A DNA stretch of 64,000 nucleotides from Candidatus Micrarchaeota archaeon (lineage in GTDB: Archaea > Micrarchaeota > Micrarchaeia > Burarchaeales > JAKAKT01): positions 8,577 to 72,576 of the forward strand of contig JBFYLO010000011.1 in NCBI GenBank assembly GCA_041305385.1. Reading direction: 5' to 3'. How positions within the stretch are numbered: position 1 is the first letter of the stretch; every line of letters begins with the position of its first letter. Below the pieces are notes generated by a model. That model was not told where the DNA came from, made no database searches, and was given only the letters and a program-made list of their open reading frames with translations. This document shows positions 2,196 through 63,414 of the stretch, piece by piece. A program made the translations under genes and the position numbers.

Positions 2196-3127
2196 AGCCT
2201 CAATCTCCCAATAACCCTCAGCCCCCTGTTCGCTCCAATCAACAGAGCCGAGTCTCCTTTTTTATAGGAAAATGGCTTTATGAGCGTCAGCTTAACTTTT
2301 CCGCTCCCCCCACCCTTCACTTCCCCTGAAACTTTACCGCTCGCATACTGCATCCCATAGGAAACAAAAACATCCTCGCTTCCAGAAACAGGAGTTCTTT
2401 GGAATTTTGTCATTTCGAGCCCGCAGGAAAGTTCATCCGCAGTCTCAAACCCTTCCCCATTAACCAGCTCAACCCCCCGCTCAACATCCTCGAGATCAAC
2501 TCCCTTCAAGCACAGCCCCGTCCTGTCCCCGGCGCTCGATTCCTGCACGTCCTTGTCCTGGACTTGAATGGAGCGCACAGAAGCAGTCTTGCCAGAGGGA
2601 AGAGCCCTCAACTCGCCATGCACTTTAACTGTTCCGCTCTTTACGATTCCCAGCACAACGAGCCCGACGCTTTTCACAACAAAGGCTGAATCCACAGGAA
2701 CTCGGAGAGGCGAAGAGACAGCCCGGTCAATATTAACCGAATCCAGTTTTTGGAGCATGGCTGAAGCATTGTTCTCGCAAGTTTCGAATTTCTCCACAGC
2801 TGTTCCCTTTGCAATCCCCGCCAATTCCTCTTTCGTTCCATCCCTGAAAACTACTACCCCTTTCATCCCAAGCGAATCAAGGGCGACAATGCATTCCCCA
2901 ATCTCCTTGCTCACTCCATCGAAAACAAGCAATGCAATGTCTGAGGAGTTCAGGCAATGGAGGAGCGAGACCAGTTTTTCTGGATAAAGGCTCGGCTCAT
3001 ACAAGCAAAGGACCGAATCATCAGTTTTCCTGTTGTAAATGGTATAATCGCTCGCTGTGCCCTTCTTTGCGAGTTTTCCCGCAGTCTCAAATTTCAGGTC
3101 TATTACGGTGACACCCAAGTTTCGCAT
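2192..3127 (-). CDS. EF-Tu/EF-1alpha-like three-domain protein with degenerate (non-canonical) G-domain motifs
   Basis: Domain II/III beta-barrel signature DSAFVVKSVGLVVLGIVKSGTVKVHGELRALPSGKTASVRSIQVQDKDVQESSAGDRTGLCLKGVDLEDVERGVELV aligns with EF-Tu/SelB domain II. The N-terminus NLGVTVIDLKFETAGKL lacks the GxxxxGK[ST] P-loop, and DxxG/NKxD are absent. Confidence 0.45.
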   Translation of the reverse strand: MRNLGVTVIDLKFETAGKLAKKGTASDYTIYNRKTDDSVLCLYEPSLYPEKLVSLLHCLNSSDIALLVFDGVSKEIGECIVALDSLGMKGVVVFRDGTKEELAGIAKGTAVEKFETCENNASAMLQKLDSVNIDRAVSSPLRVPVDSAFVVKSVGLVVLGIVKSGTVKVHGELRALPSGKTASVRSIQVQDKDVQESSAGDRTGLCLKGVDLEDVERGVELVNGEGFETADELSCGLEMTKFQRTPVSGSEDVFVSYGMQYASGKVSGEVKGGGSGKVKLTLIKPFSYKKGDSALLIGANRGLRVIGRLRL

Positions 3128-3155
3128 GGGAACGTTCTAGAGGAGAAAATTATTA

Positions 3156-4475
3156 TTAGTTCCCAAGCTCCCCGTGAACTCTCACTAAGAATTCGTTCAG
3201 CTTCCCAGGCTCGAGCTTCCCGCCAGCAGCGATGTTGTGCCCTCCCCCCAAGCCAATCCCCTCAGTCGCGGCGTGCAAGAGCTTCGAGAGATTAACTCCC
3301 TCCTTAATGAGCTTCTGCGTGGCCCTGCCTGAAATCTTTATGCTTCCTTCATCGTAAAATGCGATTGCAATTATCGGCTTGTCCCTGCTTATAACCGAAT
3401 ACAGCATCCCGGCTACGACCCCGATAATCCCGTCCTCAATTACTCCCCGTCCATCCAAAAAGTAGAACTTTCCATAGTCCTCAACAGCATTCCGCCCATA
3501 TTCAATGCCGTCCCTCAGGGCTTTCCTGTGCTTCAGCAGAAGGGCGCTCGCTTCCTTGTAGGCTCCCTCCTCGCCAAGGCAAACCCCTACCCCGACCTCG
3601 GGCTTCCCGTGCCTCCCGCAGGCATTAATCAAAGTGGAGAATTCCTTCGCATCCGAGAGCTCGGTTCCAGCCGGCCTTCTAGGGAGCCCATAAACCTCCC
3701 CAATCAGTTCGCTGGCACTGTGGCCCTTCCCTACAGAATAAAGGTGCTTCACAAGCCCGCTCACAAATGTTTTTTTCTCCTCCCTGCTCAGTTCCCCGTA
3801 TTTCCTCCAGTTTTCCCCTTGCTTGGGCTCAATCCCGATGTCAGCGAGAAATGTTCCGGCTTTCTCCTCGCTCCCGGTTATCCCAGGCAAGTAGGGTTCG
3901 GTGCAGTAGGCAAGAAAAGAAACTAGCGGCCTGCTCACCCTTCCGAAGAGCCTCAAGTCCTGCTCGCAAGTTATTTCACCAGCCTCAACTCCCTGCTCGA
4001 GCACTTTCCTGTTCCAGCCAATGAACGGGTCCTGCATGTCCCCAACTGAGCCAACGATTGCGAGGTCCGCAAGGGAAGGCTCGCTGAAAACCAGGTAAGC
4101 GGTGCTCGAAGCAGACAGCTCCTTCCCGCCGTCAATTCCGAAAATGAAGGGGTTCACCTGGAGCACCTTACTATCATTGGCCTGGTGGTGGTCTATTATC
4201 AGCACTTCCGAATCAGGCAGGAGCTCCCCAATCCTCTCCCCCATCGCCCCGCCAAAATCAACGAAAACAATTTCGCGCTCACCCCTCAGCCCCTTCACAA
4301 TCCCCTCATCGAGGCTCCTGAAAGTTCTATTCTGAGGGTCCTTCCCCATCCCCATGAGTCCTTTCTTCACAAGCGAGCCAGAGCAAACCCCATCGCAGTC
4401 GTAGTGGTTGACAATGAGAGGATTCTTCATTCTCGCAAGAAACTCTCGCCCCTCTTTGCACCTGTCCTCGAACAT
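3156..4475 (-). CDS. DHH-family phosphoesterase (archaeal RecJ/GAN-like nuclease)
   Basis: Contains HYDCDGVCS (DHH motif I), VDFGG and IIDHHQ (DHH motifs), and a GGGH-containing DHHA1-like C-terminus. TATA TTTAAATATTT lies on the minus strand at 4495-4506. Confidence 0.7.
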   Translation of the reverse strand: MFEDRCKEGREFLARMKNPLIVNHYDCDGVCSGSLVKKGLMGMGKDPQNRTFRSLDEGIVKGLRGEREIVFVDFGGAMGERIGELLPDSEVLIIDHHQANDSKVLQVNPFIFGIDGGKELSASSTAYLVFSEPSLADLAIVGSVGDMQDPFIGWNRKVLEQGVEAGEITCEQDLRLFGRVSRPLVSFLAYCTEPYLPGITGSEEKAGTFLADIGIEPKQGENWRKYGELSREEKKTFVSGLVKHLYSVGKGHSASELIGEVYGLPRRPAGTELSDAKEFSTLINACGRHGKPEVGVGVCLGEEGAYKEASALLLKHRKALRDGIEYGRNAVEDYGKFYFLDGRGVIEDGIIGVVAGMLYSVISRDKPIIAIAFYDEGSIKISGRATQKLIKEGVNLSKLLHAATEGIGLGGGHNIAAGGKLEPGKLNEFLVRVHGELGN

Positions 4476-4513
4476 ACATTAACTTCGCCAAAGAAAATAT
4501 TTAAACCGGTCAG

Positions 4514-4622
4514 GGCAGCAGGTGCCGCGGCGCTTGCAGTCTCGCCCTCGGCCGTCTGCAAGCGGCCGCCCCCGAGGGCTGGCCGAGCCATCCGGATGGC
4601 TCGCCGCAATTGGCACTGCTGC
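4514..4622. repeat. GC-rich triple-hairpin intergenic element, copy A (terminal inverted repeats GGCAGCAGGTGCC / GGCACTGCTGCC)
   Basis: Hairpins: CGCTTGCAG..CTGCAAGCG; GCCCCCGAGGGC; GAGCCATCCGGATGGCTC (perfect palindrome). It lies in the divergent intergenic region between the recJ-like gene and the small membrane gene. Homologous copies sit at 10501-10600, 11711-11806, 56250-56354 and 61649-61763. Confidence 0.55.
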
Positions 4623-4628
4623 CTAAGG

Positions 4629-4637
4629 TATTTAAAT
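4629..4637 (+). promoter_or_regulatory. Archaeal TATA box (TATTTAAAT) about 32 bp upstream of the ATG at 4669
   Basis: The same palindromic TATTTAAAT box recurs at 1211-1219 and 9335-9343, and as a near variant at 4495-4506. The ATG is preceded by GGTGGT (SD-like). Confidence 0.4.
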
Positions 4638-4668
4638 CCCGAGAGTCCAGAGTTCTACTGGTGGTAAG

Positions 4669-4884
4669 ATGAAAAGCCCAGCAGGCTTCTTGCTCGAAGT
4701 TATCGGTGCAGTCCTAGTGGTTGCTTCCATTGCAGCAGCAGGACCGGCAATCGGTTCAATAATAGGCGGAACCACGAATGCAGTTTCCGATGTTCTAGGG
4801 GTGGTGTTCCTCGCCATAGCGGGGGTGGTGGGATTTGCCCTTGGTCTGTTCATGCACAAGATTGAGGCACTCGCAGGTGAGTAG
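4669..4884 (+). CDS. Small hydrophobic membrane protein (2 TM), hypothetical
   Basis: Good TATA and SD context. The sequence is Gly/Ala/Val-rich with two predicted TM helices. Confidence 0.4.
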   Translation: MKSPAGFLLEVIGAVLVVASIAAAGPAIGSIIGGTTNAVSDVLGVVFLAIAGVVGFALGLFMHKIEALAGE

Positions 4885-51592: not shown

Positions 51593-52171
51593 TCAGAACT
51601 CAACCTTCACTGGTCCTCGCGCAGCCTCTTCAGTTTCGAAGTATTCCCTTATCTTGAAACCCAGAATCGAGGCAATCAGGTTGGACGGGAACATCTGGAC
51701 CTTGTTGTTGTAGCTCATCACGTTGTCGTTGTAGAACTGGCGCGCGTAGGCAATCTTGCTCTCGGTCCCGGCGAGCTCCTCCTGGAGCATCTTGAAGTTC
51801 TCGTTGGCCTTCAGCTGCGGGTAGTTCTCAGCCACTGCGAAGAGGCTCTTCAGAGTCTGGGTGAGCATATTGCTGGCCTGGGCCTTGTCCTTCACGCTGG
51901 TGCCATCCATGGCAGTGGCCATCTGGGCCCTGGCCTTGGTCACATTCTCGAAGACTTCCCTTTCGTGCTTGGCATAGCCCTTGACGGTGTTCACCAGGTT
52001 TGGTATGAGGTCGTACCTCCTCCTGAGCTGGACGTCAATCTGCGCCCATGCGTTGTTTATCTGGTTGCTCAGTGCAATCAGGCCGTTGTAGGTCAAAACA
52101 ACAAAGAGCAAAATTCCTAAAACTACGACCAGAAGCGCAATTCCGATGATCTCAAGCATCATCCTCACCAC
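51593..52171 (-). CDS. lemA: LemA family protein
   Basis: N-terminal TM, then [43 protein letters not shown] matching the LemA consensus. Confidence 0.8.
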
Positions 52172-52174
52172 CTC

Positions 52175-52342
52175 CTATTTTTTAACCGAAAGGGGTATCG
52201 CCCCCTTCCCAAATTCCGCGAATGCTATGTCGACCGGGTTTATCATCCCAGCGACTATCTCTACAAACGGCGGCGCGCCAAGGGAAAGCTGAAGCGCCCT
52301 GGCACCGATTATTCTAGCCTTTTCAAACCTGTTAAGCTGCAT
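52175..52342 (-). CDS. rpoK: DNA-directed RNA polymerase subunit K (Rpo6/Rpb6 homolog)
   Basis: Not in the ORF track (55 aa). Minus-strand translation gives MQLNRFEKARIIGARALQLSLGAPPFVEIVAGMINPVDIAFAEFGKGAIPLSVKK, the canonical RpoK motif RFEKARIIGARALQ. The stop is 3 nt from the lemA start. Confidence 0.8.
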   Translation of the reverse strand: MQLNRFEKARIIGARALQLSLGAPPFVEIVAGMINPVDIAFAEFGKGAIPLSVKK

Positions 52343-52419: not shown

Positions 52420-53598
52420 TCACCTGAGCAGGACTTCCAACACCTTCAGGAGTTGCGGCCTCCTGAGCAGCACCTTCTTAACCACCGGGATGAAGTTGCT
52501 CTTGAGAAGCTTGTCAATATCCTCGTCAGTGACCGTGCCAATGACTGCGTTCAGGTCGTCATCATTTAGTTTCTCGAGGACCTTCCTGAGCTTGAGCCTC
52601 TTGAGGAGCTTTGCCTCCCTCTTCCCCCTCCATGCAGTCTCATATTCGAAAAGGCTTTTTGCATCAGTCTTGTCCGCGAGCGCGCATTTCGCAGCAACCC
52701 TGCCAGCCATCATCCCGGCGTCCATGGCCAGGCAGATGCCTCCCCCATGAATCGGGTCGACCTGGTGCGCAGCAGTCCCTGCAACCATGAACCCATCGAG
52801 CACCAGCCCCTTCATGGGCGCGCCGACCGGAATGAGGCCCGCTTTCAGGGCCACTGGCTGGGCGTTTTTCAGTCTGTCAGTCTTCAGGAACCTGTTGAGA
52901 TATTCGATTGCATGGCCCTTCTCGTTCCCGCCTACCCCGACTCCCACATTCGCGACGTCCTTTCCCTTCGGGAATATCCAAACGTATCCGCGCGGCGCAT
53001 ATTCCCTTGTGAAGTATATCTCGATGAGGTCCTCGCAGTCGACGTTGACCATCTCGTACTCGGCCCCAAAGTCAGAGTCATACAATGTCGCAACTGAATT
53101 GATGCCCGCCATTCTTGCGACAGTGCTCTCCCCCCCGTCGCAGGCGATGAGGACTTTCGATTGGTATTCTGTCTTTCGCCCGTCGCTTTCTACGACCACT
53201 CCCGCGACCTTCCCCATGTCCTTCTTTACGCTGACTACCTCGCTCTTTATCATTATCTCGGCCCCTGCCCTTCCTGCCTCGAAAGCCAAGTCCTTATCGA
53301 AAACTTTCCTGTCAACGACGACTCCCTTGGTTTCTGCAGTTTTCACCTTTATGCTGTCCTTCATGTTCGGGGCAATAACCCGCGCTCCGTTGATGTGGGC
53401 GCTCACCGCCTTCTCGCTCATCTCCATCCCAAGCTCGGCAATCCAGTGGCCCCCAATCCCCTCACCGCACCTGACAGGAGCCCCGATTTCCTTCCTCCGC
53501 TCAATCACCAGAACTTCGGCTCCTGCCTTCGCCGCCTCCCTCGCAGCCATGCTCCCTGCCGGGCCAGCCCCGACAATGATTACGTCGTATTTCTCCAT
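52420..53598 (-). CDS. Geranylgeranyl reductase (digeranylgeranylglycerophospholipid reductase, FAD-dependent)
   Basis: MEKYDVIIVGAGPAGSMAAREAAKAGAEVLVIERR (FAD Rossmann), RCGEG, and a GGR-family C-terminal domain. Confidence 0.85.
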   Translation of the reverse strand: MEKYDVIIVGAGPAGSMAAREAAKAGAEVLVIERRKEIGAPVRCGEGIGGHWIAELGMEMSEKAVSAHINGARVIAPNMKDSIKVKTAETKGVVVDRKVFDKDLAFEAGRAGAEIMIKSEVVSVKKDMGKVAGVVVESDGRKTEYQSKVLIACDGGESTVARMAGINSVATLYDSDFGAEYEMVNVDCEDLIEIYFTREYAPRGYVWIFPKGKDVANVGVGVGGNEKGHAIEYLNRFLKTDRLKNAQPVALKAGLIPVGAPMKGLVLDGFMVAGTAAHQVDPIHGGGICLAMDAGMMAGRVAAKCALADKTDAKSLFEYETAWRGKREAKLLKRLKLRKVLEKLNDDDLNAVIGTVTDEDIDKLLKSNFIPVVKKVLLRRPQLLKVLEVLLR

Positions 53599-53662
53599 GA
53601 CCATCACCAATAACAAACCCGGCTCGAGTCTGCCACCTCGTTCATTTTTTTCTCCATGACCA

Positions 53663-53836
53663 TCATTTCTTCCTCACTGTTATCGCACCCATCGGGCAGG
53701 CCTTCTCGCAGTTCCCGCACGAGATGCACTTCTCATCGCAAAGGATCATCGTTTCCCTAAGCCTGAGCGCATCAACTGGGCAGACTGCCACGCAGGCGCC
53801 GCAATAAGCGCATTTGCTCTTGTCAACGTCTATCAT
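53663..53836 (-). CDS. 2x[4Fe-4S] ferredoxin (57 aa) upstream of geranylgeranyl reductase
   Basis: Not in the ORF track. Sequence is MIDVDKSKCAYCGACVAVCPVDALRLRETMILCDEKCISCGNCEKACPMGAITVRKK, with two CxxCxxCxxxCP clusters. Confidence 0.7.
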   Translation of the reverse strand: MIDVDKSKCAYCGACVAVCPVDALRLRETMILCDEKCISCGNCEKACPMGAITVRKK

Positions 53837-53900
53837 GAGACACTACCTCCTCTCCAGGATTAATCCCACTTATCATGAAAAATCAAATATAAAATAATAC

Positions 53901-54962
53901 CTATTTTTTCAGGGCAGTCTTCCATTTCTCTTCGATTCTCGCAATCGCAATCCTCTCGGCCCTCTCCCGCAGGCTCCTCCCAGGTTCCTCGAGGACCCCC
54001 ATGGTCGTTCTCCTCATCGAGTTGACCACTATCTCGGTCATGTCGACGACATTCCCGCCTATGTATTCCACGTGGGAGCTGAGGCTCGCCCCACCGCAGG
54101 CAAGTATGTCAGGGATGACATTGACGCCTCTTGCTTCGAGCATGGACTCCTCGTCTCTCCCAAGGACCCCCAGCTCTCCCTCGACCAGGATTCTCGGCCT
54201 TATCTCATTGGCGAGGTTTCGGTCTATTGCCGGAATGGTTATGAGCATCAGGTCCGTCTGTTCAGCAAGGGCCTGGGAAACAGTTGCAGGATTCCCCCTT
54301 GGAAATGCGTCAACCCTGCCCCCGGAATTCACGAGTTTGGCAAGGGATTCGACATCAAGCCCCTCCCTGTTTATCGTGGCCCCGTCCAGCTCACCGGCAG
54401 CCACCACCTTCACCCCGTTCCTCGCCAAGACCCTTGCCGCAAAGAGCCCGTCTCTCCCGAGCCCGAAAACAGATGCCTTCGCCCCGCCAATTTTCTCAAA
54501 ACCGAGCGCAGCCAGGGCACAGTTTGCAATCCCAAGTCCTGCCCCTCCCGCCTCGAAGGGAATCCCCCTGAGCTTCGACGGCTTTCCAGCAGCGCCCCGC
54601 ACATCCCCGCACGAATAGGCATAGAGCTCCATCACTTCCTCGCCCGCGCCCCTGCCAGGGCAGGCGACAAAGGAGTTGTTCGCAAGAGGGGCTATTGCAG
54701 ATGCGAATTCCCGAACATCCGCCTTCACGTTCTCGCCCTTCAGAAGGCAGGCGCACCCTCCTCCGAAAGGAACGCCGTGGAGCGAGTTCATGAACGTATA
54801 GCGCCTTGCGAGCTGGGAGGCGTATTCTATGGTGATTTTGTCAAGAAGATGGAGCCCCCCGAGCCCGGGGCCGAGAGCAGTGTTGTCTACTATCAACAAC
54901 CCGAGGCTGCCTGTTTGGGGCTTGTAAGCCTGCATGAGCCTCTCCGGGCCGTATTTGTCCAT
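53901..54962 (-). CDS. Glu/Leu/Phe/Val dehydrogenase-family protein (leucine-dehydrogenase-like) with catalytic Lys replaced by Cys
   Basis: MDKYGPERLMQAYKPQTGSLGLLIVDNTALGPGLGG aligns with the LeuDH N-terminus (MEKYDYEQLVF..GLKAIIAIHDTTLGPALGG). The GGGK motif reads GGGCACLLKG here. NAD-binding GLGRDG is present. ATG at 54962 is chosen rather than 55013. Confidence 0.6.
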   Translation of the reverse strand: MDKYGPERLMQAYKPQTGSLGLLIVDNTALGPGLGGLHLLDKITIEYASQLARRYTFMNSLHGVPFGGGCACLLKGENVKADVREFASAIAPLANNSFVACPGRGAGEEVMELYAYSCGDVRGAAGKPSKLRGIPFEAGGAGLGIANCALAALGFEKIGGAKASVFGLGRDGLFAARVLARNGVKVVAAGELDGATINREGLDVESLAKLVNSGGRVDAFPRGNPATVSQALAEQTDLMLITIPAIDRNLANEIRPRILVEGELGVLGRDEESMLEARGVNVIPDILACGGASLSSHVEYIGGNVVDMTEIVVNSMRRTTMGVLEEPGRSLRERAERIAIARIEEKWKTALKK

Positions 54963-55011
54963 GCAAGAACTTCTCATATCCCAATAAAAAGCCTTTTGGA
55001 GAAATACCATC

Positions 55012-56187
55012 ATGCTCGAGTACGTGCTCGCATTCCTTGGGCTCTACTCCGTGGTGTTCTACTTCCTGCTCTACCTGACGGAATCTGAGAATGTCAGGGA
55101 GGACCCGAAGCCCAAGGGAACGCCGACGGTTTCGGTAATCATTCCCGCCTACAATGAGGAGAAATCCATCGGGAAAACCATTGAGTCGATACTCGCCCTC
55201 GATTACCCCAAGAAAAAACTCGAGGTAATCGTGGTTAACGACGGCTCAAAAGACAGGACGAGCGAAATAGCTAAAAGATACCCCGTAAAGCTAATTGAAA
55301 AGAAAAACTCGGGCAAGGCGAACTCAATCAACGTTGCCCTCGGGCAGGCGAGGGGCGAGCTGGTTGCAATCATGGATGCGGACTCCTACGTCTCAAAAGG
55401 TGCGCTGCTGAAAATGGTCGGGTATTTCGAGGACCCGGAAGTTGCGGCAGTCACTGCGGCCATGAAGGTCTGGGAGCCGAAAACACTGGTCCAGAAGATG
55501 CAAAAGGGCGAATACCTGATAAACGCATTTTTCAAAAAACTCCAAAGCTTCATTGATGGCATTTCCGTGACCCCGGGTCCTTTTTCAATTTATAAGCGGG
55601 CGGTGCTTCTGGAGCTGGGAGGATTCGATGAGCACACGATAACTGAAGACCAGGAAATCGCCCTCAGAATCCAGTCAAGGAACCTGAGAATCGAGAACTC
55701 CATCAACGCCGAGGTTTTCACCGATGTTCCCTCGAATTTGAGGTCCCTTTTCAAGCAGAGGAGGAGGTGGTACTTAGGCTATCTCCAGAACATCTGGAAG
55801 CACAAATCCCTATTCAGCCCGAAATATGGCGACTTCGGAATGTTTGTCATGCCCCTGGCCGCGGTCCTTCTAATCCTCTCTGTGCTCTCGCTGTTCATTG
55901 CCTACGTCCCCAAGTCCCTTGACCTCAGCCTGAGGCTCGACCCCTCAGCCCTCACTTTCTTTTACCTGGAACTCACCCCGACCCGGGTCGTGTTCCTGTT
56001 CATTTTCGCCATAAACGCCCTGGCTTTTTACTTCACATTGAGGAACACGCGCGAATACGGGTTCCTCGGAAACTTTTTATCGCTGATTGCTGTATCCTCA
56101 TTGATGCTCCTGCTCTGGATAGTGGTCCTCGCCGAGCAAATCGCAAACCTCTTGAGGGGCTTCAGCCCCACCTGGAGAGGCGAATGA
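55012..56187 (+). CDS. Processive family-2 glycosyltransferase (cellulose/chitin/PNAG-synthase-like, QxxRW)
   Basis: VSVIIPAYNEE, DGSKDRT, DAD, the processive GT2 motif QRRRW (KQRRRWYLG), an N-terminal TM and four C-terminal TM helices. Confidence 0.75.
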   Translation: MLEYVLAFLGLYSVVFYFLLYLTESENVREDPKPKGTPTVSVIIPAYNEEKSIGKTIESILALDYPKKKLEVIVVNDGSKDRTSEIAKRYPVKLIEKKNSGKANSINVALGQARGELVAIMDADSYVSKGALLKMVGYFEDPEVAAVTAAMKVWEPKTLVQKMQKGEYLINAFFKKLQSFIDGISVTPGPFSIYKRAVLLELGGFDEHTITEDQEIALRIQSRNLRIENSINAEVFTDVPSNLRSLFKQRRRWYLGYLQNIWKHKSLFSPKYGDFGMFVMPLAAVLLILSVLSLFIAYVPKSLDLSLRLDPSALTFFYLELTPTRVVFLFIFAINALAFYFTLRNTREYGFLGNFLSLIAVSSLMLLLWIVVLAEQIANLLRGFSPTWRGE

Positions 56188-57033: not shown

Positions 57034-57537
57034 ATGATGCTGTTCACCTTTTGGAATGATGACATCTCGAGAAAGCTCGAGAAATCGGACAAATCCGCAG
57101 CCCTATTCTGGAGGCTTTCGAACCTTTTCGGAAAGCTTTGCATGTTCCCGTTGGCAGCAGGAGTCGTCTGTCTTCTCATTGCAGCACTTGGCCCACCCAT
57201 ACTCAGTTCAATGTTCGGCGAATTAACCGCCGATCTGAACATGCCGGTTGCGAAGAACATCAGCTCAATCTCTGAAAACACTCGCGATATTTTCTCGACC
57301 CTCGGCCTCCTTGCGTTCATCATAGCCGGATTGCTCATCATCCCCTATTCAGTCGCAACTGGAATGCTTGCTCTTAGGATGAAGGATAACGGCTGGGGCA
57401 TAGCCCTGCTCCTCGGCTTCTTCCTGTGGCCCCTGGCCATTCTGGGCCCCATATACAAGCAGCGGAAGCGAAAGGAGTTCTCAAACAAAACTGAGGCGGT
57501 TGAATGTTCTGGGAAGACGACATCTCGAAAAAGCTGA
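57034..57537 (+). CDS. Small polytopic membrane protein, paralog 1 (FWxDDISxKL family), hypothetical
   Basis: Begins MMLFTFWNDDISRKLEK...FWRLSNLF, with 3-4 TM helices. It overlaps paralog 2 by 34 nt in another frame. Confidence 0.4.
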   Translation: MMLFTFWNDDISRKLEKSDKSAALFWRLSNLFGKLCMFPLAAGVVCLLIAALGPPILSSMFGELTADLNMPVAKNISSISENTRDIFSTLGLLAFIIAGLLIIPYSVATGMLALRMKDNGWGIALLLGFFLWPLAILGPIYKQRKRKEFSNKTEAVECSGKTTSRKS

Positions 57538-58034
57538 CCGAGGCTGGAAGGAAAAACACGGGCACTCTCTGGAAGGTCTCGAACCTGTTTGCGGTTCCAG
57601 CGGTCCTCGCTATGCTTGCGCTAATCGGCGGAATCGTCCTTCTAATAGTTGCTGCCTCGGCCACCTTTCTCTTCGGTCCATCGCCAACCACCGACACCAT
57701 AAAAAACGTTGTCCCAGTGATAGCTCTGCTGCTCTTTATCGCTGCAGGAGTCCTTTACCTCTTTTTCCTCGTCTATGCTGTCATTGTAGCTGCCATAGCA
57801 TTTGATTTCGGAGATGTTTGGTGGGGGGCGGCGAACCTGCTAATTGGCATTACGGCTCCGTTCTACAAATATTTCAAGGCCAAGGAGATTCGGGAGAAGG
57901 GGCTCCAGCTGAAAGAACTTAACAATTCGCCGGCTGAAGTGGAAAAAAACAAACAACCTCCTGAAGCCGAGCCCGTTGTTCAGCCGCCCGCCCCCGAGCC
58001 TAAAAAGCCCACTAGAAAAAAAGTTTCCTCTTAA
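57504..58034 (+). CDS. Small polytopic membrane protein, paralog 2 (FWxDDISxKL family) with Pro-rich basic tail, hypothetical
   Basis: Begins MFWEDDISKKLTEA...LWKVSNLF and ends PPEAEPVVQPPAPEPKKPTRKK. Confidence 0.4.
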   Translation: MFWEDDISKKLTEAGRKNTGTLWKVSNLFAVPAVLAMLALIGGIVLLIVAASATFLFGPSPTTDTIKNVVPVIALLLFIAAGVLYLFFLVYAVIVAAIAFDFGDVWWGAANLLIGITAPFYKYFKAKEIREKGLQLKELNNSPAEVEKNKQPPEAEPVVQPPAPEPKKPTRKKVSS

Positions 58035-58041
58035 TATCCAA

Positions 58042-58323
58042 TCACTCGAGCCATCCATAGCCAGCGTTTCTCCTCATTATCGTAGTTACCCGGACCTCGT
58101 TTCCAACAATAGCATAAACGACCCTGAAATCCCCGGCTCTCAGGCGGTAAAAAGCCGGATTAAACGAGCCTTCGAGTTTCTTTATGTCCGCGCCGCTTCT
58201 TTTTCTGAAAGGGTTTTCCCCAAGAGCCGAAAGCGCCTTCTTTATCCTCCGCTGGTCCTTCTGCTCGAGCTCGTAAAACGATTTGCGGGCAGCGTCAGAA
58301 ACCAAAACTGAGAAACCGTTCAT
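58042..58323 (-). CDS. RelE/ParE-family type II toxin
   Basis: 93 aa, KKALSALGENPF...RLRAGDFRVVYAIVGNEVRVTTIMRR, with typical RelE/StbE-fold conservation. It overlaps the upstream small gene by 4 bp. Confidence 0.65.
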   Translation of the reverse strand: MNGFSVLVSDAARKSFYELEQKDQRRIKKALSALGENPFRKRSGADIKKLEGSFNPAFYRLRAGDFRVVYAIVGNEVRVTTIMRRNAGYGWLE

Positions 58324-58514
58324 AGCTCATCAGCCGGAGTGAACCCCTCGTTCCTCAGAATCCACTTCTGCCTCTCGAGGAATCCGTGCAAGGTGGCGAC
58401 TTCCATGAGCTCATTCAGTATGTCGTTGTATGTCTGCTTCTTGCTGCCGAACTCCTTGAGCTTGTCTCGAGTCCTAACGTCTATCGATATCGTCGTGTTC
58501 ATATAATCAAACAT
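58320..58514 (-). CDS. Putative antitoxin partner of the RelE-like toxin
   Basis: 64-aa acidic protein immediately upstream with a 4-bp overlap. Confidence 0.5.
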   Translation of the reverse strand: MFDYMNTTISIDVRTRDKLKEFGSKKQTYNDILNELMEVATLHGFLERQKWILRNEGFTPADEL

Positions 58515-58812: not shown

Positions 58813-61269
58813 TTGAACTGGCACTACTCGCTTTTCGTAATACTCTTCTTGGCCTCGTCTCCTTTTGCTACGCTGATAGCCGAACAATCTACAGACAAAG
58901 AGATTTCTGTGCCGACTTCGATTTCTGAAAACAAAATTGGGATGGCAAACCCGGCAGCAGTTTACTGCATTGAGCTTGGCTATGGTTACAAAATCACCAA
59001 AGGGCCATTGGGCGAATATGGGACTTGCATTTTCCCGGACAAGACCGAGTGCGAAGAGTGGCAGTTTCTTGCTGGTAAATGCGGGCAGAGCCACTCCTAT
59101 TGCGCGAAGCAAGGCTATGGGATAAAAACGATGAGCGATGGGAAGGACCCGTTCTCCCCGGAATATGCGGTTTGCACTTCCGTTGATAAAAAAATTGAAA
59201 TTGATTCTGTTTCAAAACTATTCGACCTGCAAACAAAATCACTGAAAGGGTCGATTACTATTTCGGTCAAAGAAGCCGTAGCTGCCCCCACATCGTCTAC
59301 ACAAGCCCAGGAAACTCCATCAGTTCTTCCCCCATCTTTTGACTGGAGAGATTACAATGGTCAGAATTGGATGACTCCAGTTAGAGACCAAGGCAGTTGT
59401 GGTTCATGCTGGGTTTTTTCGACAGTTGGAGTGGTTGAGGCTCTTTTTAACTTACTTGACAATACTCCAGGACGAGATTTTGACCTCTCAGAACAGACCA
59501 TAGTTTCTTGCAACGGAGTGGGTAATGGTTGTCTTGGAGGAGACCCAAGATTTGCGCTCTCATACATTAAAAATACCGGAATCCCGGATGAGATGTGTTT
59601 TCCCTATGTTGCTCAGTACGCGTCATGCTCAAATAGATGTCCAGACTGGATGGAAAGATCAGTAACCATAACGAGTCATGGGGAAATGTGGAACGTCTCC
59701 GGTATGGAACTTGTTCCTCTGGATATCGAAACAGTAAAAAGATATCTAATCGAGAAGGGACCACTTGAAACTGTTATGAGCACCCGTGGCAGTTTCATAA
59801 ATTTTAACGGAACTTTTGTTTATGTTTGTAACGGTGATCGAAATCTCACGCATTCTGTAATCATTACGGGTTATAATGATAACTTTACCCTCCCTCAAAA
59901 CCCATACACGAACAGCGGAGGTTACTGGATTATTAAAAACAGTTGGGGTTTAGTGGGTGATGGGTATATCTACATAAAATATGGGGAATGCGGCGTGCCT
60001 ACGATGATAACCTACGCTAAAAAATGCCTGGAGGCAGGAGCGCAATGCAATAATAATCTTCAGTGCTGCTCTCGCGATTGTAATGGCGGGACGTGTTCTC
60101 AGCGATGTGGTGATGATGATTGTGATGGAAATGAAACCTGTGAAACTTGTAAGCAAGATTGTGGTCGTTGCTCTTGTGGAGATGGGGAGTGTACTCATAC
60201 TGGCATTACGAGCCAATTTGAAAGATGCGATAATTGTCCAGAAGACTGTGGCCAGTGCACAGGGTGCGGAGACGGTTTTTGCGTCCCCCCTGAAAACTGC
60301 TTAACGTGTCCAGGAGATTGCATTAGTTGTTGTGGTGACGGACAGTGTTTAGGAAACGAAACAACAGTTACATGTCCAAATGATTGCGGAAGCCTTTGTG
60401 GCGATGGAGCATGTAATGGGTACGAAGACACCCGTGAATGCCCAGAAGACTGCGGTTCATTGTGCGGCGATTGGACATGCAATGGAAATGAGACCTGTTT
60501 ATCCTGCCCGACAGACTGTTTCTACTGTTTCGCCGACCCAGCGGTCCAAAACATCAGTTGGACGCCGGATTCACCAACTAACTGTAGCGGATACGGCAAC
60601 GTTGAGGTGAAGAACATAGGGACTTTCCCGAGCCCACGGGGGGTTTACTCAATTTATGCCGATAACATACTCATCGGTCAAGGGTTTACTAGTGAACTCC
60701 CGCCAGGGCGGTCCAACTACATCGGCTTCCTTTACAATCCCATATCAACGTCCTCACCTTACCGGATGATTGAAGCATCGATAAATGTTGTCAACGATTC
60801 TAACCCTGAAAACAACCGGCTCGTCAAGCAGATAACTCTCAACTGCTACTGCGGTAACGGGAGATGCGATTTGAATGAGAATACAGCAACCTGTCCTTCT
60901 GACTGCCCACTCCAATTCTGCGGAGATGGAACCTGCAATTCTGGAGAGACGTGCTCTTCATGTCCGAGTGACTGCGGAACGTGTATATGTACCCCAGCCT
61001 ATTTCTGCAAAGACATCAACACGCTGGCGTACAGAAATTTCAAGTGCTACGTTAGCTATTCGAGCTGCAATGGGGGAATCTGCTGCAATGGCAAATGCCA
61101 AAAGGCACTCCCCGGAGCTACGTGCATCGATGTCAATACGGTGGTGGCAGCACAAAACATTGCGCAGGTGCAGGGCCCTGAGCTTCCGACTGTTCTCGCA
61201 GTTCTGAGCATGGTTGTCTTGGTGGGGGTAGTGCTCTATGCGTTCATAAAAATAGAAACGAGGTTCTGA
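58813..61269 (+). CDS. Membrane-anchored secreted papain-like (C1) cysteine protease with N-terminal DUF333 domain and a C-terminal array of Cys-rich repeats
   Basis: TTG start with signal peptide. DUF333-like NPAAVYCIELGYGYKI..GTCIFPDKTECEEWQF. C1 peptidase motifs are QGSCGSCWVFSTVG (catalytic Cys) plus downstream His/Asn regions. There are at least eight repeats of C[GS]DGxCxxxExxxxCPxDCGxxC. The C-terminus has a TM anchor LPTVLAVLSMVVLVGVVLYAFI. The island is AT-rich. Confidence 0.75.
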   Translation: MNWHYSLFVILFLASSPFATLIAEQSTDKEISVPTSISENKIGMANPAAVYCIELGYGYKITKGPLGEYGTCIFPDKTECEEWQFLAGKCGQSHSYCAKQGYGIKTMSDGKDPFSPEYAVCTSVDKKIEIDSVSKLFDLQTKSLKGSITISVKEAVAAPTSSTQAQETPSVLPPSFDWRDYNGQNWMTPVRDQGSCGSCWVFSTVGVVEALFNLLDNTPGRDFDLSEQTIVSCNGVGNGCLGGDPRFALSYIKNTGIPDEMCFPYVAQYASCSNRCPDWMERSVTITSHGEMWNVSGMELVPLDIETVKRYLIEKGPLETVMSTRGSFINFNGTFVYVCNGDRNLTHSVIITGYNDNFTLPQNPYTNSGGYWIIKNSWGLVGDGYIYIKYGECGVPTMITYAKKCLEAGAQCNNNLQCCSRDCNGGTCSQRCGDDDCDGNETCETCKQDCGRCSCGDGECTHTGITSQFERCDNCPEDCGQCTGCGDGFCVPPENCLTCPGDCISCCGDGQCLGNETTVTCPNDCGSLCGDGACNGYEDTRECPEDCGSLCGDWTCNGNETCLSCPTDCFYCFADPAVQNISWTPDSPTNCSGYGNVEVKNIGTFPSPRGVYSIYADNILIGQGFTSELPPGRSNYIGFLYNPISTSSPYRMIEASINVVNDSNPENNRLVKQITLNCYCGNGRCDLNENTATCPSDCPLQFCGDGTCNSGETCSSCPSDCGTCICTPAYFCKDINTLAYRNFKCYVSYSSCNGGICCNGKCQKALPGATCIDVNTVVAAQNIAQVQGPELPTVLAVLSMVVLVGVVLYAFIKIETRF

Positions 61270-61768: not shown

Positions 61769-62434
61769 TCACTTGTTTCTTTTCACCCAGGGCGGGGCAT
61801 CCTTGAATTCCAAATCTTCGGCGGGCTTCCCGTCCCCCTCGATTATACCGCCCCCAGTTTTTTCTTCACTCTGGGCTTCCCCGCCTCCCCCCTCCAGCTC
61901 CTTCCTGGCCTTTTCCACTAGGGTTTCCTCTTTCTCTTGCTTGGGCTCAGGGGGCTTCTCCTCTGGCTTGGGCTGGGCGGGCTTGAGCCTGCATTCCGGG
62001 CATCTGGCGAACAGCTTCGGGTCCATCCTCTTCGTTTCAATCATGTAATTCTTCTGGACAAGGGCCATGGTGTCCTTGCCGCATACCTCGCACTTGGCCA
62101 TCTCGTAAATTTTCTTGGCATAGAGCTCCTTGTCCTCGCGCGCCTCCTCGTAGCGGTCGGTGAATATGACTGCGTTCACGGGGCAGACGTCGGCGCACCT
62201 TCCGCAGGATATGCAATGGGGGAGCCAGTAGACCAGGGATTTCCTGTCGAACTTTATGCACTTGGCAGGGCAGGCTGCTGCGCAAGCCCCGCAGGCTATG
62301 CATGCGTCTGAAATCTCAATCATGCCCCTGAACCTCGCCGGGGGCAGCACCTTCCTGGCCGGGTAGGGGACAGTGCTTGGCATGCGGAAGAGGTTCTTCA
62401 GCACGTCGTCAATCATCCTTGGAATCAGTTTCAT
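61769..62434 (-). CDS. NuoI/EchF/HycF-like 2x[4Fe-4S] ferredoxin subunit of a membrane-bound hydrogenase, with extra Cys motif and K/E/P-rich tail
   Basis: CIACGACAAACP and CISCGRCADVCP, an additional CEVCGK...CPEC, and a C-terminal PKPEEKPPEPKQEKEE low-complexity region. Confidence 0.75.
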   Translation of the reverse strand: MKLIPRMIDDVLKNLFRMPSTVPYPARKVLPPARFRGMIEISDACIACGACAAACPAKCIKFDRKSLVYWLPHCISCGRCADVCPVNAVIFTDRYEEAREDKELYAKKIYEMAKCEVCGKDTMALVQKNYMIETKRMDPKLFARCPECRLKPAQPKPEEKPPEPKQEKEETLVEKARKELEGGGGEAQSEEKTGGGIIEGDGKPAEDLEFKDAPPWVKRNK

Positions 62435-63414
62435 CCAACAACACCGTTATAGACCAATACAATTAACATCTGGATTATCGCGAACAGGAGCAGGCCCTTC
62501 AGGTAGAAGCCGGAGGCCTGGTGGACCTTGAACCTCCCGGAGACTGCTTCCACAATCGCCATGAGAATCGCTGCGAAGAGCGCCACAGCCATCTGGAACA
62601 CGAGCATCATGAGGACCCCGAGGGCTGAAACTGAGAGGAAGGGGACCGCTTTCTCGATGCCCTGGAACGCCGGCATGAGGAAGGCTCCGGGCTCGGGAAT
62701 GGGCATGAACAGGGTTGCGAAAAGCATGGGGAAGACATAGAATTTGAGGGCTTCAGTAATCTTGTAGGCTGCGAGGAGCCTTCCCGAATATTCGGTGTAA
62801 ATGCCCTCCACTATCTCGGTCTCAGCCTCGGTCACGTGGAACGGCGCCCTTCCCAGCTCCCCGAGCATGCAGGCGAAATAGACCGCTGCACCAAGGAGGA
62901 GCAGTGCGTTCGAAGCCGCGTCCATGGCCCCAAGGGAGAAGCTCTTCGCCAGGAAGGCCACTGAGAGCAGGACCAATGTCATGGGGAGCTCAAACGAGAT
63001 GACCATCGTTATCTCCCTGGAGGCGCCGATTGCCGAGAAGGGGGAGCCCGAGGCAGAGGCCCCAAGTATTATCCCGATGCTCGAGAGTATAATCACATAA
63101 AGGAGCACGAACAGGTCGCCGCCGAATCCCCAGAGCGAGACCTTTGCTATGGGCACGAGCAGCACCGCAGTTGAAATCGCAGCCACTGAGACCAGCGGGG
63201 CGAGTATGAACAGGGGCCTGACCGCACCCTTCGGAATCAGCGTCTCCTTCGAGAGCAGTTTCAATATGTCATAGAGGGGCTGGAGTATGGGCGGGCCTAT
63301 CCTGTTCTGCAGCCTCGCGAAAAGCTTCCTCTCGACTCCTTGAAGTATTATCCCGAATAGGAAAGCGAACAGCAGGAGCACAGCCGAGCCCAGCAAATAT
63401 TGGACAGCATCCAT
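62431..63414 (-). CDS. NuoH/EchB/HycD-like integral membrane subunit of energy-converting hydrogenase
   Basis: RKLFARLQNRIGPPILQPLYDILKL and eight TM helices. It has 4-bp overlaps with both neighbours. Confidence 0.8.
   Translation of the reverse strand: MDAVQYLLGSAVLLLFAFLFGIILQGVERKLFARLQNRIGPPILQPLYDILKLLSKETLIPKGAVRPLFILAPLVSVAAISTAVLLVPIAKVSLWGFGGDLFVLLYVIILSSIGIILGASASGSPFSAIGASREITMVISFELPMTLVLLSVAFLAKSFSLGAMDAASNALLLLGAAVYFACMLGELGRAPFHVTEAETEIVEGIYTEYSGRLLAAYKITEALKFYVFPMLFATLFMPIPEPGAFLMPAFQGIEKAVPFLSVSALGVLMMLVFQMAVALFAAILMAIVEAVSGRFKVHQASGFYLKGLLLFAIIQMLIVLVYNGVVG

Follow-up and report, generated by a model that had tools for sequence, protein, structure and literature searches.

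In a 64,000-nucleotide (nt) stretch of a Candidatus Micrarchaeota archaeon genome (contig JBFYLO010000011.1, positions 8,577 to 72,576; the whole analyzed stretch is hereafter the window), one minus-strand gene encodes a 353-amino-acid (aa) homolog of glutamate dehydrogenase (GDH) in which a cysteine stands in place of the catalytic lysine and the other residues that bind and deaminate the amino acid are replaced as well. Nine distinct Micrarchaeota sequences, from metagenome-assembled genomes or metagenomes, share this replacement pattern at 51-74% identity (hereafter the clade). The gene is under purifying selection and is neither a decaying pseudogene nor a sequencing artefact. As judged from the alignments, canonical oxidative deamination by the GDH-like protein can be excluded with high confidence. 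We tentatively propose, at a little under even confidence, that it is a dinucleotide-binding, non-catalytic pseudo-dehydrogenase with a regulatory or sensing role.

The protein has the complete fold of a GDH

The mechanically called open reading frame (ORF) reaches 55013. We set the start at Met18 of this long ORF, at 54962, because MD(K/R)YGPE opens every orthologue of the protein and because a TATA-like element, AAAGCTTTTTATT, is found 24-36 nt upstream of this ATG. The resulting product is 100% identical to a 353-aa NCBI protein (P0001; P numbers denote proteins and L numbers loci). An earlier note on this DNA, made by a model from the sequence alone, had described a full-length dehydrogenase homolog on the same strand as neighboring ferredoxin and geranylgeranyl reductase (GGR) genes, and the homolog at 55013/54962..53901 on the minus strand bears this out. 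Both Pfam domains of the Glu/Leu/Phe/Val dehydrogenase (ELFV) family score above gathering, the dimerization domain PF02812 at 30.1 bits (cut-off 25.3) and the NAD(P)-binding domain PF00208 at 54.6 bits (cut-off 23.4). The AlphaFold model is confident (predicted local distance difference test 95.8, predicted template-modeling (TM) score 0.93), and a Foldseek search of the PDB with it returned GDHs as all of the best matches (TM 0.87-0.89) and members of the GDH family throughout the top 50 (TM 0.79-0.89, normalized to the query). The predicted two-domain ELFV fold is thus unambiguous.

The same note had called the protein leucine-dehydrogenase-like. The short N-terminus and the length do resemble leucine dehydrogenase (LeuDH), but the fold and the sequence are closer to GDH, with PDB sequence matches at E = 1e-27 for GDH and E = 5e-9 for LeuDH. 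NCBIfam GDH equivalog scores are far below cut-off, the best being NF040817 (GdhA_Arch) at 69.4 bits against 750. JGI names the clade members P0005, P0007 and P0390 'glutamate dehydrogenase (NAD(P)+)', and NCBI lists P0002 as a hypothetical protein. Because the catalytic residues are missing, the JGI name is very probably a misannotation.

The catalytic and substrate-binding residues are replaced as a set

K125 of C. symbiosum GDH (CsGDH) is the catalytic base, and in GDHs this lysine of the GGGK motif sits by the substrate C-alpha and the nicotinamide. We take the LeuDH equivalents to be K80 for the GGGK lysine, K68 for the lysine that binds the alpha-carboxylate and D115 for the catalytic aspartate. 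The other roles assigned in CsGDH are binding of the gamma-carboxylate by K89 and S380, of the alpha-carboxylate by K113 and Q110, and of the amino group by G164 and D165 (bioRxiv 10.1101/2024.12.26.630402). Replacements in the GDH-like protein were read from HMMER alignments to solved GDHs and from multiple alignments, with CsGDH numbering for the canonical residues.

In these alignments Cys70 falls exactly on K125, which upholds the reported change of GGGK to GGGC. The position is Cys in every clade member and Lys in 17/17 sequences of the nearest relatives (the sister group), and the occurrence of the Cys in nine distinct orthologues rules out a sequencing error. The earlier note had presented this as a single replaced residue; the Cys stands, but the whole amino-acid-binding and catalytic set has gone with it. 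The alpha-carboxylate lysine (K113) is Met58 and the side-chain lysine (K89) is Leu34, both invariant within the clade, and Gly103 replaces the catalytic aspartate (D165), a position at which clade members have G, S or T. His38 stands for the Arg of GGxR (Y/H/N/R in the clade) and Leu264 (L/M/V/P) for the Asn of EGAN (N348). For the Asn of PDxxANAGG (N373), Cys289 is present in eight of the nine distinct clade sequences and Leu in P0005. Two further positions are well conserved: Phe136 is invariant in the 9 full-length clade sequences and His297 is present in 8/9, with Tyr in L008. With the equivalents of K89, K113, K125, D165, N348 and N373 all replaced, the note's proposal of either a pseudo-enzyme or an altered mechanism or substrate holds.

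Of 19 pocket positions, 17 do not vary in the canonical sister group and 8 do not vary in the clade; where the clade keeps the ancestral residue in the pocket it is almost only Gly or Pro. The ancestral residue is retained in 40% of pocket cells compared with 72% at other sister-invariant positions (permutation p = 0.005).

We also considered an Fe-S or metal site formed from the new cysteines. Cys70 and Cys148 are the only invariant ones, Cys72, Cys101 and Cys117 being variable, and the protein has no known cluster motif; such a site is not supported.

A dinucleotide site is predicted to be retained

The GxGxxG loop was found intact, as reported earlier, reading G167-L-G169-R-D-G172. G167 and G169 are invariant in the clade, position 172 is G, S or A, and position 191 is acidic (Glu or Asp) in all clade and sister sequences. 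The model has a strand at 162-166, a helix at 170-181 and a second strand at 185-191. Conservation of the dinucleotide site is alike in the clade and the sister group (mean entropy 0.42 and 0.34, respectively). The Gly-rich loop and the acidic residue after beta-2 together point to a retained Rossmann-type dinucleotide site.

The gene belongs to a narrow lineage and is under purifying selection

Among 1.84 billion representatives, a clade profile recovered a single cluster at 50% identity (644 bits) along with a fragment; the next match scored 239 bits. A scan of genome contigs for clade members gave 4 loci, and a scan of metagenome contigs for further members gave only sister-group genes, 29-30% identical. 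The nearest relatives are proteins of ~370 aa from DPANN archaea (P0008-P0024), 30-34% identical, in which every canonical residue is kept.

Pairwise ratios of nonsynonymous to synonymous substitution rates (dN/dS) for the GDH-like gene are 0.12-0.19, with dS near saturation. Compared with the orthologues in locus L005, the GDH-like protein is 73% identical, as are the products of the neighboring glycosyltransferase (GT2) gene and of a gene for a 219-aa protein, and the ferredoxin and GGR are 84% identical. The low dN/dS and the divergence rate equal to that of the GT2 and 219-aa genes are the basis for ruling out decay or artefact.

Loss of the lysine is also seen elsewhere. We examined 269 ELFV homologues and representatives, a sample that was gathered with the clade profile and is hence biased; in 26 of them that do not belong to the clade, the catalytic Lys is likewise absent (examples include P0131, P0133, P0134, P0136, P0139, P0141, P0162, P0169 and P0204). 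In its place stand A, R, Q, S, T, Y, E or M or, in P0141 and P0162, Cys once more, and some of these sequences are also without the carboxylate Lys and the Asp. It appears that ELFV paralogues have degenerated repeatedly.

A divergent glycosyltransferase gene is the constant neighbor

In 9/9 distinct orthologous loci, the GDH-like gene lies beside a divergently transcribed GT2 gene, with the two ATGs about 50 nt apart. This is the only neighbor constant over all loci, and the GT2 gene is followed by a gene for a 212-220 aa partner wherever the flank is present. The GT2 product scores 172 bits against a PgaC/IcaA-like model, which is under the equivalog cut-off. The AAAGCTTTTTATT element upstream of the GDH-like ATG is conserved in eight loci, at the position expected of a leaderless archaeal transcript, and we predict a promoter of the leaderless type. 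It is the one conserved AT-rich element between the GT2 ATG (55012, plus strand) and the GDH-like ATG (54962, minus strand). The 49-nt spacer may serve both genes as a bidirectional promoter, each transcript being leaderless.

Toward the other side, the order GDH-like gene, ferredoxin, GGR on one strand is found in the window, L005/L017 and L002. Since all three genes are on the minus strand, the dehydrogenase-like gene lies upstream of the ferredoxin-GGR pair and not, as first described, downstream of it. The interval given in that description, 53663-56187, leaves GGR outside and takes in the unrelated plus-strand GT2 gene (55012..56187). In L003, an AAA/DUF4143 gene (2517-3848) separates the GDH-like gene from the ferredoxin, and in L018 an opposite-strand gene for a 383-aa protein without a Pfam match (3690-4841) does so. 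In the more divergent L001, L004 and P0005 loci, the downstream genes are convergent and unrelated.

The spacer at 53837..53900 contains T-runs, a TATA-like TATTTTATA and a ribosome-binding site, GGAGAGGAGG. Upstream of the ferredoxin ATG, a CCTTTTATA ... GGGGGTAAT element and a GGGGGT ribosome-binding site are present in five loci, among them L003 and L018, where the upstream neighbor is another gene. Because each has a conserved promoter element, because genes are inserted between them in L003 and L018 and because L001, L004 and the P0005 locus have unrelated genes downstream, the GDH-like gene and the ferredoxin-GGR pair are predicted to be separate transcription units. We rejected an operon on the same grounds, and a functional link between the GDH-like protein and the pair, which the earlier note had implied, is not supported either. 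The spacer between the GDH-like gene and the ferredoxin is a hot-spot for insertion: L003 and L018 are nearly identical strains and carry different genes there.

The ferredoxin-GGR pair is a known module

The 57-aa ferredoxin gene directly 5´ of GGR was described correctly before; the protein has two complete CxxCxxCxxxCP motifs for its 2x[4Fe-4S] clusters. Against its L005 orthologue it shows 84% identity and a dN/dS of 0.095. GGR scores 241 bits with TIGR02032 (cut-off 158.8) and 73.5 bits with PF22578 (GGR_cat) and has the motifs RCGEG, YVWIFP and HGGG at residues 45, 207 and 286. Its exact substrate is not assigned because the equivalog-level models fall below cut-off (249 bits compared with 780). 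The likely start is the ATG at 53604 or 53598.

Adjacency of the two genes is conserved in L002, L005, L017 and L018, with 4-8 nt from the ferredoxin stop to the GGR start. This distance suggests translational coupling in the orthologues and fits the known ferredoxin-GGR partnership (PMC10821996). In Methanosarcina acetivorans, GGR has been shown to receive its electrons in vivo from a ferredoxin encoded beside it in the genome, and several archaea, including Archaeoglobus and Thermoplasma, are known to have a ferredoxin gene adjacent to GGR (PMC10821996). We read the pair as the ordinary archaeal lipid-saturation module, with the ferredoxin as the presumed electron donor. The adjacency and coupling fit the suggestion, made in the earlier note, of a ferredoxin dedicated to GGR, but that proposal is not new (PMC10821996). 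M. acetivorans, Archaeoglobus and Thermoplasma have the same small 2x[4Fe-4S] ferredoxin gene beside a GGR-family gene, and nothing notable sets the present pair apart save a 59-nt insertion. The pair adds nothing new beyond placing a known module, apparently translationally coupled, in a genome-reduced DPANN archaeon.

The insertion lies between the two genes in the window only; L002, L005, L017 and L018 are without it. It is bracketed by a 17-nt direct repeat, TGATGGTCATGGAGAAA, at 53590-53606 and 53649-53665 on the minus strand, and it makes a mini-ORF of 20 codons (MMVMEKKMNEVADSSRVCYW) with a stop that overlaps the start region of GGR.

Possible roles of the GDH-like protein

We hypothesize that the GDH-like protein is a lineage-specific soluble protein with a complete two-domain GDH/LeuDH fold that no longer binds or deaminates an amino acid, apolar or small residues (Leu34, Met58, Cys70, Gly103, Leu264 and Cys289) having taken the place of the polar binding and catalytic ones. 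It would still bind NAD(H) and could act as a non-catalytic dinucleotide- or redox-sensing regulatory or scaffolding subunit. Its candidate partners are the divergent GT2 glycan-synthase module, in view of the 49-nt distance between the two ATGs and the promoter region they have in common, and a canonical dehydrogenase whose gene would lie at another place in the genome. We favor a regulatory or sensing role because the Rossmann signature is kept, because several of the former catalytic positions drift and because there are two precedents, GdhA and ADLP (below). Variability at positions 38, 103 and 264 fits a lost site better than precise re-tooling.

Several observations weigh against this interpretation. 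Residues on the nicotinamide side are changed, namely the Asn of GAN, the PAA motif and, within the Gly-rich loop, NV to RD, and because of these changes NAD(H) binding is unproven. Within-clade variability of the pocket is not distinguishable from that of other formerly invariant positions (entropy permutation p = 0.24), and a relaxed pocket is thus not demonstrated. Cys70, Met58, Leu34 and Phe136 do not vary and Cys289 and His297 hardly do, whereas the lysine position in the ADLP clade is variable; the invariance of Cys70 and its companions hints at a new, selected role for the pocket. No canonical ELFV paralogue that could serve as a partner was found within the 64-kb window or the fetched flanks. 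Finally, distant Micrarchaeia keep the GT2 gene and its ~220-aa partner without an ELFV neighbor and the canonical sister genes lie in unrelated contexts, and the association with GT2 may therefore be plain synteny. The contexts of the canonical sister genes and of distant GT2 homologues gave no functional clue.

The hint of a selected pocket is the starting point for the main alternative explanation, in which the GDH scaffold and its NAD(P) site have been turned to a substrate that is not an amino acid and is probably apolar or uncharged, with Cys70 as nucleophile, perhaps together with His297, or with Cys70 and Cys289 as a redox pair. We consider such a neofunctionalized enzyme unlikely, though well worth keeping in mind. 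The strict conservation of Cys70, Met58, Leu34 and Phe136, the presence of Cys289 and His297 each in 8/9 sequences and the purifying selection on the gene all fit it. Cys70 would also be well placed, where the lysine of GDHs flanks the substrate C-alpha and nicotinamide, and thiohemiacetal or thioester chemistry at a Cys nucleophile is familiar from GAPDH, aldehyde dehydrogenases and UDP-glucose dehydrogenase. The 49-nt divergent promoter region shared with a processive GT2 synthase can be counted on the same side; in streptococcal hasA-hasB, a GT2 synthase is paired with a Cys-dependent NAD enzyme, although this is an analogy only. Against it, pocket positions 38, 55, 101, 103, 264, 292 and 293 vary freely in the clade, Cys289 is lost in P0005 and His297 in L008, and no conserved pathway neighbor suggests a substrate. 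The clade is moreover narrow, and at its 51-74% identity about a quarter of all columns are invariant anyway.

A more specific and decidedly improbable version combines these elements. The protein could be a thiol-based NAD-linked enzyme or redox switch, with Cys70, Cys289 and His297 by the nicotinamide in the former substrate pocket, that is co-regulated with GT2 through a bidirectional promoter and either supplies or modifies the GT2 substrate or gates surface-polysaccharide synthesis by the NAD+/NADH ratio or thiol state. If true, this would be the first known Cys-dependent function of a protein with the ELFV fold.

The gene order in the window, L005/L017 and L002, together with the Rossmann site that seems to be kept, could be taken to mean that the GDH-like protein is an electron-input partner, oxidizing NAD(P)H or an amino acid and passing electrons to the ferredoxin that reduces GGR. 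We regard this as very improbable. Pfam and NCBIfam scans revealed no flavin or Fe-S motif that could break a two-electron hydride transfer down into single-electron steps, each unit has a conserved promoter of its own, and the ferredoxin and GGR appear to be coupled to each other and not to the upstream gene. Insertions interrupt the order in L003 and L018, and in L001, L004 and the P0005 locus the genes are no longer adjacent.

Survival of amino acid dehydrogenase activity through a displaced lysine, or some other compensating residue, is if anything harder still to credit. A lysine, Lys75 of LLKG, lies five residues past Cys70 in the window and in most orthologues, and the JGI annotation of clade members would agree with retained activity. 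Lys75 lies, however, at the end of the model strand 67-74, and P0005 has Met and P0007 Ala in its place, which disposes of the possibility, raised in the earlier note as a potential refutation, that the catalytic Lys has merely shifted to LLKG. The carboxylate-binding Lys, the Asn and the catalytic Asp are gone too, and the NCBIfam GDH equivalog score is 69 bits against a 750-bit cut-off.

Lastly, a decaying, functionless remnant would account for the loss of all catalytic residues and for the narrow lineage (one 50%-identity cluster among the 1.84 billion representatives) but is essentially refuted by the selection signal, with the frame intact in nine distinct lineages, dN/dS at 0.12-0.19, a conserved promoter element, a confident predicted fold and a rate equal to that of the GT2 gene.

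Layout of the locus and other genes nearby

On the minus strand of the interval first described and its flanks, five genes are co-directional, encoding the GDH-like protein, the ferredoxin, GGR, RpoK and LemA. Coordinates are collected in Table 1.

Table 1. Coordinates in the window of the genes, spacers and codons discussed in the text
Feature	Position	Strand	Evidence or remark
GDH/ELFV-like protein, putative pseudo-dehydrogenase, 353 aa + stop	53901..54962	-	PF00208, PF02812, AlphaFold, Foldseek, dN/dS
2x[4Fe-4S] ferredoxin, 57 aa	53663..53836	-	Two CxxCxxCxxxCP motifs, Pfam Fer4 61.6 bits
Geranylgeranyl (digeranylgeranylglycerophospholipid) reductase	about 52420..53604	-	TIGR02032, PF22578, motifs
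RpoK	52175..52342	-	
LemA	51593..52171	-	
Processive-type GT2 glycosyltransferase, QRRRW motif	55012..56187	+	PF00535 126.7 bits
Membrane-anchored thioredoxin-fold-like protein, 219 aa	56365..57024	+	Weak Thioredoxin_2/4 matches; co-directional with GT2
Divergent spacer, GT2 ATG to GDH-like ATG, 49 nt	54963..55011	.	Holds AAAGCTTTTTATT
Spacer, GDH-like stop to ferredoxin ATG, 64 nt	53837..53900	-	T-runs, TATTTTATA, GGAGAGGAGG
Cys70, codon TGC, for catalytic Lys	54753..54755	-	Alignments to solved GDHs
Met58, codon ATG, for alpha-carboxylate Lys	54789..54791	-	TWKN to TFMN; CsGDH K113
Gly103, codon GGC, for catalytic Asp	54654..54656	-	APD to CPG; CsGDH D165
Cys289, codon TGC, for Asn of PDxxANAGG	54096..54098	-	To PDILACGG
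Dinucleotide-binding loop G167-L-G-R-D-G172, kept	54447..54464	-	Alignments
Glu191, acidic residue ending beta-2, kept	54390-54392	-	Alignments

Downstream of the 219-aa gene, tandem paralogous genes at 57034-57537 and 57504-58034 on the plus strand encode small membrane proteins without a Pfam match, of which L017 and L018 have one copy only. They are followed on the minus strand (58042-58514) by a small toxin-antitoxin-like gene pair, which is represented in L017 and L018 by genes called ParE_toxin and DUF7557. At 58813-61269 on the plus strand is a gene for an 818-aa protein with an N-terminal DUF333, a papain-family (C1) cysteine protease domain and a long C-terminal region of Cys-rich repeats (CGDG.C..E....CP.DCG) ending in a hydrophobic segment; at the syntenic place in L017 and L018 the gene is shorter or missing. 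From 61769-63414 on the minus strand to the window end, poly-ferredoxin and NuoH-like genes belong to a group-4 [NiFe]-hydrogenase / complex-I-like module. Related loci of this module also hold NuoB/C/D-like genes and HypA, and the module is syntenic with the GT2/GDH-like locus in L001, L004, L017 and L018. Outside the clade, a canonical, Lys-bearing sister ELFV gene (P0012) lies directly downstream of a gene for a 93-aa Fer4_13/15 ferredoxin in L014 (4681-6107) and L015 (2212-3638).

Implications and comparison with known systems

A metabolic reconstruction of Micrarchaeota in which this gene is taken for a GDH, and thus for a link between amino acids and the tricarboxylic acid cycle, would be wrong for this lineage. 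More generally, the clade is a clean, conserved example of an ELFV fold that has lost the whole catalytic and substrate-binding set and yet is kept under selection. The 26 further Lys-less sequences suggest that dead or re-tooled ELFV paralogues may be recurrent and unstudied, and if the invariant Cys is functional, it would represent new chemistry on a classic scaffold. Our literature search found no paper describing the Cys70 variant.

The closest counterparts are the small DPANN ELFV dehydrogenases of the sister group, which have the same fold, length and short N-terminus; the GxGxxG, acidic residue, GKP and PD motifs are kept in both. The clade differs from them in K89L, K113M, K125C, D165G/S/T, N348L/M/V/P and N373C, in a 6-8 residue deletion after the GGxC strand, and in the changes of NV to RD and PHE to PFE. 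The sister genes, in turn, lie in unrelated genomic contexts.

Two proteins of Thermus thermophilus provide precedents for a regulatory role. GdhA is a catalytically inactive regulatory subunit of the hetero-hexameric GDH GdhA-GdhB (PMC9570180; bioRxiv 10.1101/2025.10.31.685773). It likewise has the GDH fold, and chains of its structure (PDB 3AOE) are among the closest structural matches to the model; the likeness is drawn from its reported inactivity and its retention for a non-catalytic role. GdhA pairs with the catalytic GdhB, whereas no such canonical paralogue was found in the window or fetched flanks.

ADLP (TT_C1082), an alanine-dehydrogenase-like pseudoenzyme with a replaced catalytic Lys, is an NAD+ sensor that regulates an adjacent CoA transferase (bioRxiv 10.1101/2025.10.31.685773). 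Like the GDH-like protein, it is an amino acid dehydrogenase homologue in which the Lys is replaced clade-wide; it keeps NAD(H) binding and adjoins its target. ADLP belongs, however, to the AlaDH/PNT family and not to ELFV, and both its NAD binding and its partner are demonstrated, whereas for the GDH-like protein we infer them. The replaced position is A/S/G/D/T in ADLP and always Cys in the GDH-like clade, and the substrate-binding residues kept in ADLP are all lost here. Against these known systems, the GDH-like protein, which is confined to one small lineage, is unusual for the completeness of the loss and for its invariant Cys.

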